In this document: in pieces, positions 1,020 through 8,242 of the stretch | Layout of the letters: each line of letters opens with the position of its first letter | How positions within the stretch are numbered: the first letter of the stretch is position 1 | Translations under genes and position numbers: made by a program | The notes under the pieces: model-generated | Database searches by the model: none | The model's input: only the letters and a program-made list of their open reading frames with translations | What the model was told of the DNA's origin: nothing | Source: a virus | Strand: one strand, 5' to 3' | Virus genome (UHGV): UHGV-0104471 | Length of the DNA: 41,822 nucleotides

Positions 1020-1372
1020 TACGCCTCCGATGTAACAGTCGTTATTCCATAAAGAGTGTCGATTTCAGCGGAAAACATGACACGTCGGGTCGTGGTATCC
1101 ACCGTCGTATTGAAAGAGAGGATTGATTTAACGCCCCGCGTTTCGAGGATGCGCTTACGGATCGCCAGGTTGTAGGTTTCCGGCTTCTGCTTACCGAGTA
1201 CGGACTGGATCCACGGAGTCCCCTCGGTGGTGTCGAGAAACCATTGCCCATACCACAATTCGAATCGCGTTTTTACCGCCTGCGCCACGGCCTCCGGTGA
1301 GTTAATCAGCCAGGTATCATCGCCGCTGCCAAAGGTGTAATCACAGTCGGCGTCTTCGCGTCTGTATCGCAT
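1019..1372 (-). CDS. small baseplate protein (gpW / gp25-like), 117 aa
   Basis: Track ORF; size and position between spike-like and J-like genes; overlapping start/stop coupling at both ends. Confidence 0.45.
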   Translation of the reverse strand: MRYRREDADCDYTFGSGDDTWLINSPEAVAQAVKTRFELWYGQWFLDTTEGTPWIQSVLGKQKPETYNLAIRKRILETRGVKSILSFNTTVDTTTRRVMFSAEIDTLYGITTVTSEA

Positions 1373-2124
1373 CAGTTCACCCCGTCTGTGTTGCTTCCGC
1401 CTCGCTGAACCCCGCCGTGCGTGTGCGTATCATCAATTGACTTGCCGTTAGCCTTAACGCTCCCCAAGAACTCAACAGCACCAGTGATTTTTGAAGCCAC
1501 ACCAGAAACAACAGACCCCACCATGCCCCCCATCCAGGTTAACAGGCCATGAATGGTTACTTTCTCAGAAAAATCAGCCAGAGGGGCAACCACATCAAGA
1601 CCACCCGGAGCGACAATTTTAATTTTCCTGGTGTCAGGATTAAGCTCAAAATAGGTGCTGCCGTCGTCACTACGCAACTGTGTGGCACTGGTATTAATAC
1701 CGCTAATCTTCCTCGCCTGCGACTGGGGACCGACAATACAAAACGCATCCGATAAATCATGCATTCTGTCATCGACCGGCTCCTGTATCCCGCCACTCTG
1801 CCACCAGAAATCAATACAACGATCGGCAAAAACGACAAGACACTCATCCCCGGCTTTTACCGGAAAAGTCAACGTGCAGCCTCCGCCGCGCGGGAATACC
1901 ACTGGCACATCCACCAGCAGGGGTAATGTCGTCGACTGGTTGATTCCATTTGAGTCCGGCTCATAGCCTTTAATCGCAGGTTGAACAACTACCGTTACCG
2001 TGTCCGGATCAAATGACTGGACAATTCCGGGCAGAGAAACACGCAGTGCCGACATGACAGAACCAGCAAGTCTTACATCGGCCTGTTCTTTGCTACCAAG
2101 TTGAGCGCTTAAAGAAACGGGCAT
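1372..2124 (-). CDS. baseplate spike / assembly protein V-like, 250 aa
   Basis: Track ORF; Gly-rich C-terminus (HTHGGVQRGGSNTDG) typical of spike proteins; SD GGAGA 7 nt upstream of ATG at 2124. Confidence 0.45.
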   Translation of the reverse strand: MPVSLSAQLGSKEQADVRLAGSVMSALRVSLPGIVQSFDPDTVTVVVQPAIKGYEPDSNGINQSTTLPLLVDVPVVFPRGGGCTLTFPVKAGDECLVVFADRCIDFWWQSGGIQEPVDDRMHDLSDAFCIVGPQSQARKISGINTSATQLRSDDGSTYFELNPDTRKIKIVAPGGLDVVAPLADFSEKVTIHGLLTWMGGMVGSVVSGVASKITGAVEFLGSVKANGKSIDDTHTHGGVQRGGSNTDGVN

Positions 2125-2143: not shown

Positions 2144-2171
2144 AAAAAACCCAGCCAAAGCTGGGTTTTTT
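2144..2171. terminator. bidirectional Rho-independent terminator (A6-stem-loop-T6)
   Basis: aaaaaaCCCAGCcaaaGCTGGGtttttt between ant stop (2185) and spike gene start (2124). Confidence 0.6.
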
Positions 2172-2184
2172 AAGTTGTCAATTG

Positions 2185-3099
2185 TCAGTAACGATGCAGT
2201 GAAGGCGGCAACTCTTTGTTCTTAAGTCTTACCCATGCGGAAAGATTCGTTGGTCCGTCTGGCTCATTGATATCAACATCTCGTGTGTGGTTGATTAAAA
2301 CGTCTCTCGCCATTCCGATAACATACGAAAACTCATGACCGTAGTCGTAGCATCTTCCGGAATAGTTCGATTGAATTTGTTTTAATGCCGGATACAGTTC
2401 GCGGAATAATGCCTGTGATCGGTTAGCATAATCCCACAACCATACAAGGCTGTTTGCTTCTTTTGCAGAAAGCTCGTTGGTGCTCTTCTCTTGTTTGCCA
2501 ATGAACTCACCTTCAAGTGGAACTCGAGCTGCAAGTGACAGTGCTTCGGTAAACTGCTCCTCACTGATTTCTTTGTACGAACAGCCAAAATGAGATTTCA
2601 GTGACGACCACATGGTGATCATCGCCTTCGCCTGTTTTTCTTTTGGCAGAGACTGACCGCGACTCATGACGAGTTGTTTAATAGCTTCCTGCTGTTCAGT
2701 GGTGATTTTACCCGGCAACGCCTTTTTAGCTTTCGGTGTATTTCCGTAAGACCCCGTTTTACGAATGGATGGCAAAACTTCAGCTGTCACCCATTTGCGG
2801 AATTTGTGCGGGACTGAACCTTTATTGACGGCATCACGGCAGCGCAGAACCAATGTATACATACCTGATTCGCTCACAATGCTTAAATTCTGCTCACCAC
2901 CAAGGGTGTAACTTAAAGTTACTCCCTTCTCATCGTCATCAAGTGCAGTAAGCGCCTTGCGTGAGTTAGTCAGAGTTAAAGCATCACAAACATCTTTTGC
3001 TACAAACCACGGCTCACCGCACCTGTTGATGACGCGGATTTCACTGTCGCCGAATTTGAAGATGGTGAAATCGTTTTGTGCCTTTGCTATACTTTTCAT
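2185..3099 (-). CDS. ant: antirepressor Ant (Bro-N domain protein), 304 aa
   Basis: N-terminus [32 protein letters not shown] matches Bro-N/antirepressor signature; lies downstream of an arc-like gene and divergent from an mnt-like gene, as in P22 immI. Confidence 0.7.
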
Positions 3100-3170
3100 G
3101 TCAATATTTCCCGATCAGATTTGTTGATGTAGAAGCCTCGCCAGTTCCCGCTGTCGGGGCTTCGTTATTT

Positions 3171-3332
3171 TTAGAGAGCATTCCGCATTTTCTCCCGGTA
3201 CTTCAACCACCAAGCTAATCCTTGAACCAACACTGAGTTTTCTGACATTCCCTCTTCCTCTGCAATGCGCTTAACTTCTTCCTTAAAGCGGTACGGGTAG
3301 CGAAGAGTTGTCTTTACTTCATTCTTTTCCAT
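3171..3332 (-). CDS. arc: Arc-like ribbon-helix-helix repressor, 53 aa (below ORF-track size cutoff)
   Basis: Hand translation MEKNEVKTTLRYPYRFKEEVKRIAEEEGMSENSVLVQGLAWWLKYREKMRNAL; resembles P22 Arc (recalled ...LRWPREVLDLVRKVAEENGRSVNSEIYQRV...); SD AAGGAG 5 nt upstream of ATG at 3332. Confidence 0.6.
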   Translation of the reverse strand: MEKNEVKTTLRYPYRFKEEVKRIAEEEGMSENSVLVQGLAWWLKYREKMRNAL

Positions 3333-3354
3333 GCTGTCTCCTTATTTCACAATG

Positions 3355-3369
3355 AAGGCAAATTGCCTT
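3355..3369. promoter_or_regulatory. 15-bp perfect palindrome AAGGCAAaTTGCCTT, candidate operator in the arc/mnt divergent promoter region
   Basis: Seen in the 107-bp intergenic region between arc start (3332) and mnt start (3440); a partial second copy of the TTGCCT half-site lies near 3401-3412. Confidence 0.4.
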
Positions 3370-3439
3370 TAGAGTCAATTTACCATGATTGCACATGAAG
3401 TCAAGTTGCCTCTACAATGATTTTTATTTGAGGTGAGTT

Positions 3440-3763
3440 ATGTCAGAAAAATTTCCCAGCCAAATGCAAGACAAGTTCACCGTGAGGTTTCCTGACGGAT
3501 TGCGCGATGCTATAGCTGAACGAGCTAAACGTAATGGCAGATCAATGAACTCAGAGATTGTGCAGATACTGGAAGATGCCTTGAATGCAGAAAATACTCT
3601 TGGGGAAATAGCAGATAAAATTAACAGCGTCTCGGTTCCGCTAAATGTTGATGCGCTAGTTCAACTTCAAGCCCAAGTTATCGCCATGCAAAAAGAAATA
3701 CAGGAAAAGTTCAGAGAGCAGAACGAAAAGTTGAGAGAACTGCTAAACAAAAAACCCACCTGA
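3440..3763 (+). CDS. mnt: Mnt-like ribbon-helix-helix repressor, 107 aa
   Basis: N-terminus FTVRFPDGLRDAIAERAKRNGRSMNSEIVQILEDAL is an Arc/Mnt-family RHH motif; SD GAGGTGAG upstream; divergent from arc-ant. Confidence 0.65.
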   Translation: MSEKFPSQMQDKFTVRFPDGLRDAIAERAKRNGRSMNSEIVQILEDALNAENTLGEIADKINSVSVPLNVDALVQLQAQVIAMQKEIQEKFREQNEKLRELLNKKPT

Positions 3764-3770
3764 CGGTGGG
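3747..3770 (-). terminator. Rho-independent terminator for the - strand transcript
   Basis: CCCACCtgacGGTGGG stem-loop with T-run on the - strand (plus-strand a-run 3747-3754), 18 nt after the stop of the 3788-4123 gene; the mnt stop codon lies in the loop. Confidence 0.5.
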
Positions 3771-3787
3771 TTACGGAGAGGGCAAGA

Positions 3788-4123
3788 TCATTTAACCTTC
3801 CGGCAATCATACGTCCAGAACTCCCGAGGCTCGTCCATATTTTTGCGGATAACTTCAACGTTGAGGATCGCTTTTTTGTTTCGTTTGATGTAGTCCATAC
3901 CTAACCAACGTCCAGTATTAGGATCAGGTAACATCCATTGCATCATGACATTATCGAAATCGTCTTTTTGTTTCAAAAAGGTCATTTTTTGTGTTTCTGG
4001 CTTTTGACCATTGATGTGCATGAGGCCATCATTACCAGCATCAAAGCGGAATGGTCCGCACTGCGTTGCCGCCGAAACGGTTAACGGCAGGGCCAAGAAT
4101 AAACAAAAAAATACTTTTTTCAC
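3788..4123 (-). CDS. small secreted protein with signal peptide, 111 aa, unknown function
   Basis: N-terminus MKKVFFCLFLALPLTVSA|ATQC is a typical SPase I signal peptide; two Cys in the mature part (near N- and C-terminus); GTG start overlaps the hub gene stop (GTGA). Confidence 0.55.
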   Translation of the reverse strand: MKKVFFCLFLALPLTVSAATQCGPFRFDAGNDGLMHINGQKPETQKMTFLKQKDDFDNVMMQWMLPDPNTGRWLGMDYIKRNKKAILNVEVIRKNMDEPREFWTYDCRKVK

Positions 4124-5154
4124 TCTACATCTCCGACTTTGTCCAAAGTGCCTTTTGCCAATAGTTCTTTGCCACCTTTAGCCAGGCAAAGCAGGTCCAT
4201 ATACCACGCCTGCCCTCGGGTGTCGCCAGTATAATCAATGCTGCCCACAATGTAATCACCGTCAGTATTAATGCTGGCAGGCTGTGACATGCCTGGCAGA
4301 CCGTTAACGTAGAGATTACCGTCGCTTTCAGACTCATCCAGTCGTGCTGGCGATTTCGCTACCTGGTCATTACTCAAAGAGGCACGGTATACAGATGCCT
4401 GATCCAGACGAATAAGCCCACCGAGCTTAATATTTGGATTAATCAGACATCTGACATTTACGCCAGCTCCCATCGTCTGCTGTGGCATACCGATAAGCCC
4501 GGTGTTAGCATTCAACACCGTAGCAACACCAATATATTTATCTTCAGGAACAATATTTACCAGATTATTTTCATACCACCAGTTAGCTTTACACTGCCCT
4601 GCGATATGATTCATCAACCTTGATGTGTTTTGATAAACAACGCGACCCCGGGGAAATACCGTTTCGGGCATGTCAGGAACTGCGCCGGATTCGATGCCAT
4701 ATGGTTCGAATGATTTCATACCCAGACTGAAAAGATCGCTGTACTTCCAGCCAGCAGCCACTGTGGTTTTCACACTTGCGTTCAGGTGACCTTCCCAGCT
4801 GTCAATACACTGCAACATGATCCAACTGTCTGTGGCATTATCTTTACCAGTGACAGTAAAACGGATATCTCCATTGAATATCATGCCAACGTTTTCATCA
4901 GGATAATTACCCGCTGCATCCGGTTGCCCCTTGTATCCGGCAATAACCTGTATACGCGAAAACTCCTTCTGCATAATCCGGTTCTGAGTGGTAGGAGACA
5001 GGTTATAAACCTTAAAATTCCCAACGAATCCATTAAATATGGTCGCAGGCATTTTCTGAATATTGAAAGTGACTTTAAGCTCAGAAATTTTTATCCCGTC
5101 GCCCTTATCATCAACAAGCAATAATTCAAAGTGACGCATCCAGTTTTTCGACAT
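4120..5154 (-). CDS. baseplate hub protein (gpD / late-control-D-like), 344 aa
   Basis: Track ORF; size and position after tape measure and two small tail genes; call is by synteny. Confidence 0.45.
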   Translation of the reverse strand: MSKNWMRHFELLLVDDKGDGIKISELKVTFNIQKMPATIFNGFVGNFKVYNLSPTTQNRIMQKEFSRIQVIAGYKGQPDAAGNYPDENVGMIFNGDIRFTVTGKDNATDSWIMLQCIDSWEGHLNASVKTTVAAGWKYSDLFSLGMKSFEPYGIESGAVPDMPETVFPRGRVVYQNTSRLMNHIAGQCKANWWYENNLVNIVPEDKYIGVATVLNANTGLIGMPQQTMGAGVNVRCLINPNIKLGGLIRLDQASVYRASLSNDQVAKSPARLDESESDGNLYVNGLPGMSQPASINTDGDYIVGSIDYTGDTRGQAWYMDLLCLAKGGKELLAKGTLDKVGDVE

Positions 5155-5462: not shown

Positions 5463-6113
5463 TCACCTTCCCAGAAATAAATTGCTCAGATACCCATCAA
5501 CAGTGGTGACACCTTTTTGCGCTATCTGTGGCAGCGATTTCAGAATGGAATTATTCGGCGGCACCGTTGTTTTGGTGCCTGTATTCTGCACAGCAGACGT
5601 TCCGACTCCCTCGGTCATATTGTTTTTCGTGGCTACCCTGACTGACTGCGTGGAGGTAATAATTACTTCCCTGAGGGTAAGTGTCGCCAGAAGCACATTT
5701 TCACTACTCTTATCGGTCGTGACCTCCAGCGTTTTTATCAACATATTGTTGTAAATACGCTTGCCGGTTGTCACATCGAAAGGAATACGATTCCGCTGCA
5801 GGTTAAGCAGTTCCTGATACAGTTCTTTCGGGCTCAGCCCCAGTAAACTGGTAGCCGTCAGGTTACTGGCAAAATCAAGCAGCGATCCGCCTCCGGAAAA
5901 ACCGGTTTCCATCACAACCTCAGAAGGGCGCCTGAATGCGTGTTCTGATATGTAACCAGCGCCCTCACCACTGGCGCCAGCATTCGTGGGCTGTTCAACC
6001 GGATGTTCCGTAATTTCCAGGGCGTCAGTGTGCTTTTCGGTAATAACCACATCAGGAATAATGATTCCTATTGAGCGGGTTCGCTGCTGCAGTAAAACAG
6101 ATAAAAAGTCCAT
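5463..6113 (-). CDS. tail protein, 216 aa, immediately downstream of tape measure
   Basis: Track ORF; start overlaps the tape measure stop; function by synteny only. Confidence 0.4.
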   Translation of the reverse strand: MDFLSVLLQQRTRSIGIIIPDVVITEKHTDALEITEHPVEQPTNAGASGEGAGYISEHAFRRPSEVVMETGFSGGGSLLDFASNLTATSLLGLSPKELYQELLNLQRNRIPFDVTTGKRIYNNMLIKTLEVTTDKSSENVLLATLTLREVIITSTQSVRVATKNNMTEGVGTSAVQNTGTKTTVPPNNSILKSLPQIAQKGVTTVDGYLSNLFLGR

Positions 6114-8065
6114 TACGCAGGTCCTTTCAATTGCTGTACCGCCCTGGCATTTACAGCCCCCTGCTTGTCAGCGATCAGATTAGCCGCCTCCTGAGGGTTG
6201 TTAACTCCATGAACATTTATAACAGTCTGCTGGTTAAGGCTGCCAGCGGCGGCCTGATACGCCAGCGGGCTGTTCCAGTTTGAATAACCTTCTTTGCGCG
6301 CCATCGACTGCATCAATGCTCCCATAGTACGGGGATCTGTAAGATTCAATATTGCATTCGGTGATACTCCCATCCATTTCGCAACATCCTGTGCATACTT
6401 TTTCGGATCGTTGTTATCACCTGCCGGGGCCCAGGTACTGACAATATCCTGAATAGTCTGTAATGCCCGTCCGGTTGTTTTCCCGGTAAAGTAACGCATG
6501 AGCTGGTTTTTCATCGCCTCCCAGCCCTCAAGAGCTGATTCGAAAAACCGGAACCCTTTACCGCTCACCGGGCGAATATTCCCTGGATTGTTATTCCGAT
6601 CGGCTAAAGTACGCTTCGTAGCCTGTGCATGTTGTTCCGGCTCAGCACCTGGAATATCTGACTGAATATTTGCGCCTTTTACGGTATGAGGATTACGACC
6701 AAAATCGGTATCAATGCCAAGCCAGCGCAATGAATCTCCAATATTTTGTTTCGTGTAATCCCAGGATGACTTCGCACTGGTACCAATATTTTCGCGATCG
6801 GAGTACAAATAAGCAGCATAAGCCATCCAGCCTTTTAACCATGGCGGTACCGGCAAACCAGATATTTTCCCGAAAGCCCCCAGGACCTTGGATACCCAGA
6901 CACCCGCGATGAATGTACCGAGGATTTCCAATGATTTTTGCCAGCCGCCAACACCATCTTTTAGTTCCAGAAGGTGATCACGAAGCCAGGTGATCGCATC
7001 CTTCGCTTTATCTATTGCCGGTTGCCATTTTTCCCAGTCGATAAGACTGTTACCGCCTTCTTTCCATGTTTTGTAGTCTTCCCACAAGAGACTGAGAGCC
7101 ACGATCAGACCGGTAATCAGCCCTATAGGTGACATCCAGAAAGTAGAGTTAAGTATCCGCATGGCGACAACCAGACCGCCGATAACCTCTATCAGGGTTT
7201 TCGTTTCGGCATCCAGTTTTCCCCACCACTCGATGATATCTCCGACACCATCGACTATCCGAAATGCAACCCGCCCGACTATCTCACCCAGCCAGAGGAT
7301 CCCCTTTATGACCTTTGTGATGGTGACTTCAATTTTGGGAAAATTTTCAATTATCTTTTTGCGCAGGTTATCAATCTGCCCCGCCAGTCCGTCCGCAAGA
7401 TTCGATCCGATTTTGTCCCGCGCCATCCCGGCCATTTCACCGAGCGATTTCAGCGAGGTCATAAACCGGTTTGACGATAAGGCAGCCTGATCGGCATTAA
7501 ATCCGATAGCTTTCGCCATTGCGCTGTACTGCCCGGAGAACCCCCCCACACCCCGGCGCATCGCCATAAGGGTATTTTCGTCAATGCCCAGCATCTGCGC
7601 ATACTGGTTAGCCCGGTAATACGGCATGCTGCTGAGCTTCTGGCCGACGCCCGTAAAGATAGCGGCCATGTCGCGCATGTTACCGCTGGCGTCACGGGTC
7701 TGTACCCCCAGACGATTCAGAAATCCCTCCGCCCCGGGATTATTACGAATAAACCGGGAGAGGTTTTCCAGAGAAGATCGCGCAGCGTCCACGCTGCCGC
7801 CAACCTGCGAAACCGCATAGCCAATAGACTGAATCCCCTGAACCGTCGCGCCGGTGCGCTGTGACGCCCAGTAGAGATTATCCAGACCGGAGGCGATCTT
7901 AGCCGTGAAGGCCACCACGGACAGCGCAGCTCCTTCAACAGCCAGCCCCATTTTGATGACATTTGCAGTTGTACCGGCGAGGACAGAACCGAACTTTTTC
8001 GCTCCTGCATCATCCACACTGAAGCCAAGCGAGACGAGGAAATCTTTAATAGTTTCAGCGTTCAT
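6113..8065 (-). CDS. tail tape measure protein
   Basis: Long ORF with hydrophobic central segments; follows the chaperone/frameshift pair; track start is TTG at 8086, preferred start is ATG at 8065 (MNAETIKDF...) with SD GGAGAGAGGA. Confidence 0.7.
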   Translation of the reverse strand: MNAETIKDFLVSLGFSVDDAGAKKFGSVLAGTTANVIKMGLAVEGAALSVVAFTAKIASGLDNLYWASQRTGATVQGIQSIGYAVSQVGGSVDAARSSLENLSRFIRNNPGAEGFLNRLGVQTRDASGNMRDMAAIFTGVGQKLSSMPYYRANQYAQMLGIDENTLMAMRRGVGGFSGQYSAMAKAIGFNADQAALSSNRFMTSLKSLGEMAGMARDKIGSNLADGLAGQIDNLRKKIIENFPKIEVTITKVIKGILWLGEIVGRVAFRIVDGVGDIIEWWGKLDAETKTLIEVIGGLVVAMRILNSTFWMSPIGLITGLIVALSLLWEDYKTWKEGGNSLIDWEKWQPAIDKAKDAITWLRDHLLELKDGVGGWQKSLEILGTFIAGVWVSKVLGAFGKISGLPVPPWLKGWMAYAAYLYSDRENIGTSAKSSWDYTKQNIGDSLRWLGIDTDFGRNPHTVKGANIQSDIPGAEPEQHAQATKRTLADRNNNPGNIRPVSGKGFRFFESALEGWEAMKNQLMRYFTGKTTGRALQTIQDIVSTWAPAGDNNDPKKYAQDVAKWMGVSPNAILNLTDPRTMGALMQSMARKEGYSNWNSPLAYQAAAGSLNQQTVINVHGVNNPQEAANLIADKQGAVNARAVQQLKGPA

Positions 8066-8242
8066 TATCCTCTCTCCATTTCTCAATGCGCCGCTGGTTA
8101 TCCGCTTTTACCGCCAGATGGTCATTCAAGAGAGCAATGTCGTACAAATCGACAGAGCCATCTTTAAGTGCTGTATAAGGAATTAACCCGGCGTCAACCG
8201 GATTGAGAAGGTAAGACAGCCCGTCCGGCAGGCTGTTAAACG

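Follow-up and report, generated by a model that had tools for sequence, protein, structure and literature searches.

A small gene lying between the baseplate hub and spike genes of the virus genome UHGV-0104471 is read here, tentatively and with slightly less than even confidence, as a moron-type accessory gene that has become fixed at the 3' end of the hub gene in SEN34-like phages and whose predicted periplasmic product would protect against superinfection. The gene occupies positions 3788..4123 on the minus strand of the window, by which is meant the whole stretch of 41,822 nucleotides that was analysed. A first-pass annotation made from the letters alone had proposed that the gene is a moron carried by the late operon, with a product that is exported and non-structural. 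This proposal is now strengthened by a promoter-like element embedded in the hub gene, by the terminators that bound the locus, by the independent exchange of alleles at this position and by the existence of homologous baseplates that lack the gene.

The window comes from a temperate myovirus of the SEN34-like (Brunovirus) type, a phage of Enterobacterales whose early genes, Q among them, are lambdoid. SEN34 itself has been shown to be a myovirus with λ-like early genes, and the paper describing it reports no virion proteomics (PMC5261728). A near-identical prophage in E. coli 5CRE51 adjoins a tRNA-Arg gene and intS; the lambdoid Q antiterminator is present both in the window and in this matching prophage, and a complete lysis cassette is located elsewhere in the prophage. 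Upstream of the small gene, the order is tape-measure, Dit-like tube initiator, plug (Pam3_gp18 family) and hub, the last three being arranged as in gp17-gp19 of Pam3. Downstream, beyond an insert, come the spike, a sheath-initiator-like W gene and baseplate J. The 344-aa product of the upstream neighbor (4120..5154, minus strand) matches PHROG 196 'baseplate hub' with an E-value of 3e-80 and Pfam E217_GP41 with an E-value of 1.4e-7, in agreement with its earlier identification as the baseplate hub. The gpV-like spike gene (1372..2124, minus strand, with its ATG at 2124) encodes an N-terminal spike domain (Pfam, 1.6e-44) and an Apex motif. In relatives, the C-terminal domain of the tape-measure protein (6113..8086 in the window) is annotated as a lytic transglycosylase, and it is a conceivable periplasmic target of an inhibitor.

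The small gene is a 111-aa ORF with a GTG start, as originally described, and its translation opens with MKKVFFCLFLALPLTVSAATQCG. The GTG (4123..4121) overlaps the TGA stop of the hub gene (4122..4120) as GTGA, an arrangement that can be read directly from the sequence, as can a Shine-Dalgarno motif, GGAG (4131..4134, minus strand), 7 nt upstream of the start. The start codon and an 18-residue Sec-type signal peptide, MKKVFFCLFLALPLTVSA, span 4070..4123, and the mature domain of 93 aa together with its TGA stop (3790..3788) spans 3788..4069. This close association with the hub gene is conserved: the start falls between -8 and +3 nt from the hub stop in 67 of 69 viral loci, 41 of those 67 having a 4-nt ATGA or GTGA overlap. 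Since translational coupling to the hub is maintained so widely, late expression of the small gene is also to be expected. With a G+C content of 42.3%, the gene falls below the hub at 45.3%, the remaining tail genes at 49-53% and the 48.6% of the whole window, though not sharply. In the deposited annotations of SEN34 (SEN34_20, locus L004) and of locus L002 (QBP27692.1), the products are 78 aa in length and have lost the signal peptide because the start was placed at an internal Met; a TTG or ATG adjoining the hub stop gives the full 113-aa pre-protein in both.

The encoded protein has the hallmarks of an exported one. Its N-terminus has the layout of a Sec-type signal peptide without a lipobox, as had been claimed, with a basic n-region bearing K2 and K3 (MKK), a hydrophobic core (VFFCLFLALPL) and a cleavage site (TVSA followed by A) whose position is uncertain by one residue, processing being predicted between VSA and A or between SAA and T. 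By a simple heuristic, the combination of basic n-region, hydrophobic core and small-x-small site is kept in 99 of 102 full-length homologues, while the sequence of the signal peptide drifts, with a dN/dS of about 0.7. The two cysteines noted earlier near the mature N- and C-termini, Cys22 and Cys107, are invariant in an alignment of 50 sequences; a third, C7, sits inside the signal peptide and is not conserved. The window protein carries the UniRef label 'Lipoprotein', which is not supported, as the residues before Cys22 are A-T-Q and the Q at -1 is disallowed by the lipobox pattern [LVI][ASTVI][GAS]C. The mature protein of 11.1 kDa has a pI of 9.0, a GRAVY score of -0.91 and 31% charged residues. 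AlphaFold2 models it with a mean pLDDT of 88, exceeding 90 in the mature part, as an eight-stranded up-and-down beta-barrel with Cys22 on the first strand and Cys107 on the last. In view of its hydrophilic composition, the barrel would be soluble rather than a membrane barrel. Taken together, export by the Sec pathway, a disulfide bond and a periplasmic location can be inferred from the sequence.

A homology and structure search, suggested in the first-pass annotation, was fruitful in part: it uncovered a catalogued family and neither a functional family nor a close solved structure. The protein is a full-length member of PHROG 3443 (phrog_3443, E 7.4e-48, residues 2-111 against profile positions 2-114 of 115). 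A protein at the syntenic position with 99% identity, WP_000755137.1, bears the PGAP name 'STY1065/STY2022 family phage-derived protein' in some RefSeq genomes; since no HMM in NCBIfam release 20.0 matches the small protein, this name probably derives from another kind of rule. No Pfam family matched, nor did any PADLOC defence model at E-values up to 0.01, and a literature search for STY1065/STY2022, WP_000755137 and phrog_3443 returned no relevant paper. When a close solved structural relative was sought, only generic small barrels were matched, and PDB sequences searched with a profile yielded nothing but spurious nanobody matches at E-values of about 0.1.

A word-indexed search returned 134 homologues, all from Enterobacterales, and the mature part evolves with a dN/dS of 0.12-0.13, in comparison to 0.06 for the hub, about 0.1 for W and 0.22 for the plug. 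The small ORF is therefore a real gene under purifying selection and not a chance reading frame. The family is small and narrow, as only 55 relatives came out of an exhaustive profile search that covered 1.84 billion cluster representatives. The exact protein sequence occurs on at least 1000 assembled contigs, and 338 of 5426 complete E. coli genomes contain a match to a 601-nt stretch surrounding the gene. Among the genera with relatives are Salmonella (including Typhi, as STY1065/STY2022), Klebsiella, Pantoea and Pectobacterium. All the relatives that were examined have the gene directly after the hub, as in Klebsiella phage ST340-VIM1phi10.1 (76% identity), vB_EcoM-683R1 (33%) and SEN34 (29%). 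When the family was used as the query, the hub gene ended immediately upstream in 80 of 80 loci, at hub identities from 47% to 100%, and the family is thus confined to this position. It is not a sporadic moron: being found at one position only is unusual for a freely mobile moron. Three relatives, P0126, P0136 and the product of locus L069, are lipoproteins with true lipoboxes and the barrel domain at the C-terminus; they are the sole lipobox versions, and they again indicate the envelope. An unassigned N-terminal domain, of about 190 aa in P0126 and P0136, precedes the beta-barrel in these fusions, and the fusion gene in L069 (5048..5749) directly follows the hub. One further candidate, the 632-aa repeat protein P0157 with six profile matches, was discarded as a spurious low-complexity match.

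Upstream of the gene, within hub codons D300-T309, lies a promoter-like element (4228..4256, minus strand) comprising a -35 hexamer, ATTACA (4256..4251), a 17-nt spacer and a -10 hexamer, TATACT (4233..4228). The element is about 105 nt before the GTG, and transcription is predicted to start near 4221, about 98 nt upstream of it. ATTACA-17-TATACT agrees with the consensus at 9 of 12 positions, and no other sequence upstream on the coding strand resembles a sigma-70 promoter well; a promoter scan of the region was not enriched over shuffled sequences. Essentially every related locus has this element at the corresponding position, even where a substitute protein follows the hub. Its conservation at synonymous sites was assessed with a codon alignment of 77 distinct hub sequences. 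The codons that make up the hexamers are nearly fixed (GAT 0.99, TAC 0.97, TAT 0.99 and the four-fold degenerate ACT 1.00), against a background in which only 5.7% of 227 conserved degenerate columns use one codon in at least 95% of sequences. Most codons of the spacer vary, as exemplified by GTC (0.45), ATT (0.69) and GAT (0.50). In the most diverged hubs, where the T is replaced by H or N, the -10 becomes TATCAT or TATAAT, such that TAnnnT is kept despite the amino-acid change. One spacer codon, G304 (GGC, 4240..4242 in the window), is also near-invariant at 0.99 and is left unexplained by the promoter model. The conservation of the hexamer codons points to selection at the nucleotide level as expected for a promoter, the activity of which is predicted. 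It would be a weak sigma-70 promoter, inferred to be active in the lysogen.

The locus is also bounded by intrinsic terminators. After the small gene, the first-pass annotation had placed a terminator at a distance of 18 nt; a hairpin with a T-run is indeed present, and the spacing from the stop codon is 15 nt instead. This terminator, T1 (3745..3772, minus strand), has the arrangement AACCCACC-GTCA-GGTGGGTT, an 8-bp G+C-rich hairpin at 3772..3753, followed by the T-run TTTTTTGTTT, and a folding energy of -16.8 kcal/mol (z -3.2). Its loop holds the stop codon of a convergent gene on the plus strand that belongs to the insert, a P22 immI-like module (2185..3763, both strands) recognized by its Pfam matches and forming a second cargo between hub and spike. 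The module consists of the convergent Mnt-like RHH gene of 107 aa (3440..3763, plus strand), a divergent Arc-like gene of 53 aa (3171..3332, minus strand) and a BRO-N/P22AR antirepressor (Ant) gene (2185..3099, minus strand) that matches P22_AR_C at 1e-29 and Bro-N at 7e-20; the Pfam Arc values for the two RHH genes are 1.5e-18 and 1e-3, one for each gene. In most related loci the module is missing, and homology to the window then ends exactly at the stop codon of the small gene. The T1 hairpin is also found after the small gene in other loci with an Arc/Ant insert. A second terminator, T2 (2145..2170, minus strand; dG -18.7, z -4.5), lies about 20 nt upstream of the spike ATG at 2124. More broadly, 75 of 80 loci have a strong terminator in the 140 nt ahead of the spike gene, and terminators are denser in the gap (1.05 per kb) than among the tail genes upstream of it (0.10 per kb). 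Five loci have no gene but the small gene in the gap, and in all five a strong terminator sits within the 61-76 nt before the spike. Since a Q antiterminator is present, late read-through of T1 and T2 would be explained by analogy with lambdoid biology.

The position after the hub behaves as a site of exchange. An initial impression of co-evolution with the hub cassette came from vB_EcoM-683R1, where Dit, plug, hub and small protein diverge jointly; it was overturned by a wider table of loci, in which swaps of the small gene do not track the alleles of hub, plug, Dit or spike. Small-protein alleles that share only 60-65% identity follow hubs whose N-terminal halves are 99-100% identical (L020-L029), and hubs at the same level of identity are also followed by a non-homologous 80-aa protein with a signal peptide (L022, L024, L026, L038). 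Conversely, a hub with 76% identity in its N-terminal half and 85% in its C-terminal half (L039) carries an identical small protein. In vB_EcoM-683R1, the backbone is approximately 95% identical to the window outside one divergent region, which covers the tape-measure C-terminus and continues across Dit, plug, hub and small gene into the N-terminal portion of the spike. The hub of this partial genome (L003 3937..5001) is annotated as two CDS, 3937..4575 and 4582..5001, which possibly reflects a frameshift or sequencing error.

Across 78 loci, the first gene after the hub encodes a member of the PHROG 3443 family in 69, the Cys-rich 80-aa protein in eight and a lipoprotein with the family domain in one, so that a predicted exported protein occupies the first position in 78 of 78. 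The 80-aa protein (for example, L024 5034..5276) has a signal peptide, Cys-rich repeats of the 'TNTGTTYC' type and no family match; it is also encoded at L022, L026, L035, L037, L038, L058, L066 and L072, and its gene overlaps or immediately follows the hub stop. In many loci, the current stop codon is followed by an out-of-frame relic of the last ~30 codons of a SEN34-type allele (ending in VQLLQNSMDAPKIIGSFPCKKIVD and its stop), as at L006 5349..5453, and this relic looks like the scar of a cassette replacement. The window has none because its immI insert begins at the stop codon. Further cargo in the gap includes DUF4282, Arc/Ant modules, membrane proteins, toxin-antitoxin-like pairs and an HExxH protein. 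Among these genes (L013 5595..6745, L028 5427..6265, L074 7661..8251, L002 5617..6183 and others) are pairs without signal peptides, in sizes of 243-273 aa plus 126-140 aa or 143 plus 135 aa, a possible HicA/HicB-like pair and an HExxH protein of 188 aa. This later cargo may be of a toxin-antitoxin or defence type; PADLOC gave no matches to it except a weak PDC-S05 for one BRO-like protein.

Related baseplates are built without the small protein. In the cyanophage Pam3, tube initiator gp17, plug gp18, hub gp19 and spike gp20 are encoded consecutively, and the solved baseplate has six components, none of which is equivalent to the small protein (PMC9942802). In AbTJ (Acinetobacter), ZX7 (Proteus) and BP63, a lytic Salmonella phage, hub homologues of 25-27% identity are followed directly by spike homologues of 37-39%, and the family profile found no match in any of these three phages. 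The Burkholderia phage vB_PL1 (L167 3445..3816) has an unrelated 123-aa protein with a predicted signal peptide (MKKLLLTAALLAPLAAVA followed by DD...) encoded on the opposite strand between hub and spike, a second, independent use of the hub-spike junction for an exported protein. A parallel was also considered in E217 gp42, which lies between hub gp41 and tip gp43; it was rejected, having neither a signal peptide nor similarity, and it is not named among the virion proteins in the main text of the E217 paper.

The function favored, purely by analogy with HK97 gp15, T5 Llp, Cor, Ltp and T4 Sp as small envelope proteins whose genes lie among or next to tail genes, is superinfection exclusion at the level of the envelope. 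In the lysogen, the gene would be transcribed from the weak sigma-70 promoter in hub codons 300-309 as far as the terminator that follows it, while in the lytic phase the late, Q-antiterminated transcript would supply it, with translation coupled to the hub through GTGA. The pre-protein would be exported by Sec and cleaved after VSA or SAA, yielding a basic, soluble, eight-stranded beta-barrel of 11 kDa with a Cys22-Cys107 disulfide that resides in the periplasm and is not part of the virion. There, it may bind an envelope target, such as a host envelope or periplasmic component used in tail penetration and DNA delivery, or alternatively a tail-tip component of the incoming phage, and this binding would protect the lysogen or infected cell from superinfection. 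The strong purifying selection on many polar residues suggests that the target is conserved and possibly of host origin, and because the small-protein allele varies without regard to those of hub, plug, Dit and spike, a self-specific interaction with the phage's own tail tip is disfavored. The conserved coupling to the hub, for its part, suggests a role in the lytic cycle that exclusion does not require.

Were this coupling the key to function, the product might act as a helper of the lytic cycle, made late with the tail tip and working in the periplasm of the producing cell, where it would block receptors or entry sites, sparing progeny from loss to infected cells or debris in the way of T5 Llp, or modulate the envelope before lysis. 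The start overlaps or abuts the hub stop in the 67 of 69 loci counted above, with loci that carry the non-homologous substitute among them; the gene sits inside a Q-dependent late operon, and the position is always filled in this temperate lineage. A purely late gene, however, has no need of a conserved embedded promoter and a dedicated terminator, the lytic relative BP63 has the same baseplate without any such gene, and the prophage already holds a complete lysis cassette elsewhere, leaving this explanation unlikely. Position and coupling to the hub could also be taken to mean that the protein forms part of the tail tip or assists in its assembly, its N-terminal hydrophobic segment serving for membrane insertion or as a lumen segment in place of a cleaved signal peptide, and all members of the enterobacterial lineage that were examined have the protein. 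Yet the same hub works with alleles of 60-65% identity or with an unrelated protein, and the homologous baseplates of Pam3, AbTJ, ZX7 and BP63 lack the protein altogether. The conserved A-x-A site and cysteine pair are typical of periplasmic proteins, a terminator separates the gene from the spike, and lipoprotein versions exist. A structural role is therefore very improbable.

The product might also be a lysogenic-conversion factor of benefit to the host, namely a periplasmic binder or inhibitor that shields the bacterium from a threat other than phage, such as lysozyme, lytic transglycosylases, antimicrobial peptides or a toxic ligand in the manner of PliC/MliC, Ivy or λ Bor. There is no Pfam match to MliC/PliC, however, and the similarity in fold is weak and generic, with avidins scoring higher. 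Morons that benefit the host usually spread among unrelated phages, whereas this gene is confined to the hub-spike junction of one phage lineage, and lysogenic conversion would not call for a conserved link to a late gene. Such a factor is accordingly given a low probability. Envelope-level exclusion remains the favored reading, and it can be carried one step further, though the result is rather doubtful: the hub-spike junction may be a dedicated 'envelope-immunity slot', in which the hub-embedded promoter drives first-position exported proteins that form a new periplasmic class of superinfection exclusion directed against tail penetration and DNA delivery. The occupants of such a slot are taken to be the beta-barrel family, the Cys-rich repeat protein and the lipoprotein fusions.

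Some of this picture is already known, as the family is catalogued and a moron encoding an exported protein is a well-known kind of element. As far as searches of the literature show, both the embedded, synonymously conserved promoter and the first position reserved for exported proteins are undescribed. If envelope exclusion is true, the family would represent a widespread, unrecognised barrier to therapeutic or typing phages in clinical Enterobacterales, as well as a new periplasmic mechanism. Whatever the function, the locus offers a clean example of a promoter within a structural gene, seen through synonymous-site conservation, and of a cargo slot whose first position takes only exported proteins.

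Among known systems, bor and lom of bacteriophage λ offer one parallel: they are genes of the late or tail region that encode exported envelope proteins, each equipped with a promoter and a terminator of its own and active in the prophage. The likeness is one of gene organisation and not of kinship. The predicted promoter of the small gene lies inside the preceding structural gene and not in an intergenic gap. Bor is a lipoprotein and Lom an outer-membrane barrel of the Ail/OmpX type, whereas the small protein has no lipobox, is hydrophilic and soluble, and shows no sequence or family match to either. A specific comparison with Lom/Ail/OmpX was negative, with no Pfam match, predicted strands of only 3-10 residues, a C-terminus ending in CRKVK in place of the expected aromatic residue, and the GRAVY score and charged fraction already given.

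Turning to other systems, HK97 gp15 is reportedly a small accessory gene in the tail cluster that blocks DNA entry at the envelope, a finding attributed to Cumby et al. in 2012; it encodes an inner-membrane protein with no homology to the small protein. The Spackle (Sp) protein of T4 is small and periplasmic, carries a signal peptide and binds the gp5 lysozyme at the tail tip of the superinfecting phage. It differs in being helical, in belonging to a lytic phage and in not being encoded beside a hub gene, and it has no similarity to the predicted beta-barrel described here. The lysozyme inhibitors PliC/MliC are likewise periplasmic eight-stranded beta-barrels of about 100 aa. Lastly, T5 Llp, the Cor proteins of phi80 and N15, and Ltp of TP-J34 are envelope-targeted exclusion lipoproteins whose genes adjoin tail or receptor-binding genes, each next to the tail component that its function concerns. 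They block a receptor or the tape-measure protein and have no homology to the small protein, which lacks a lipobox; a further likeness is that lipoprotein versions of the small-protein domain do exist.
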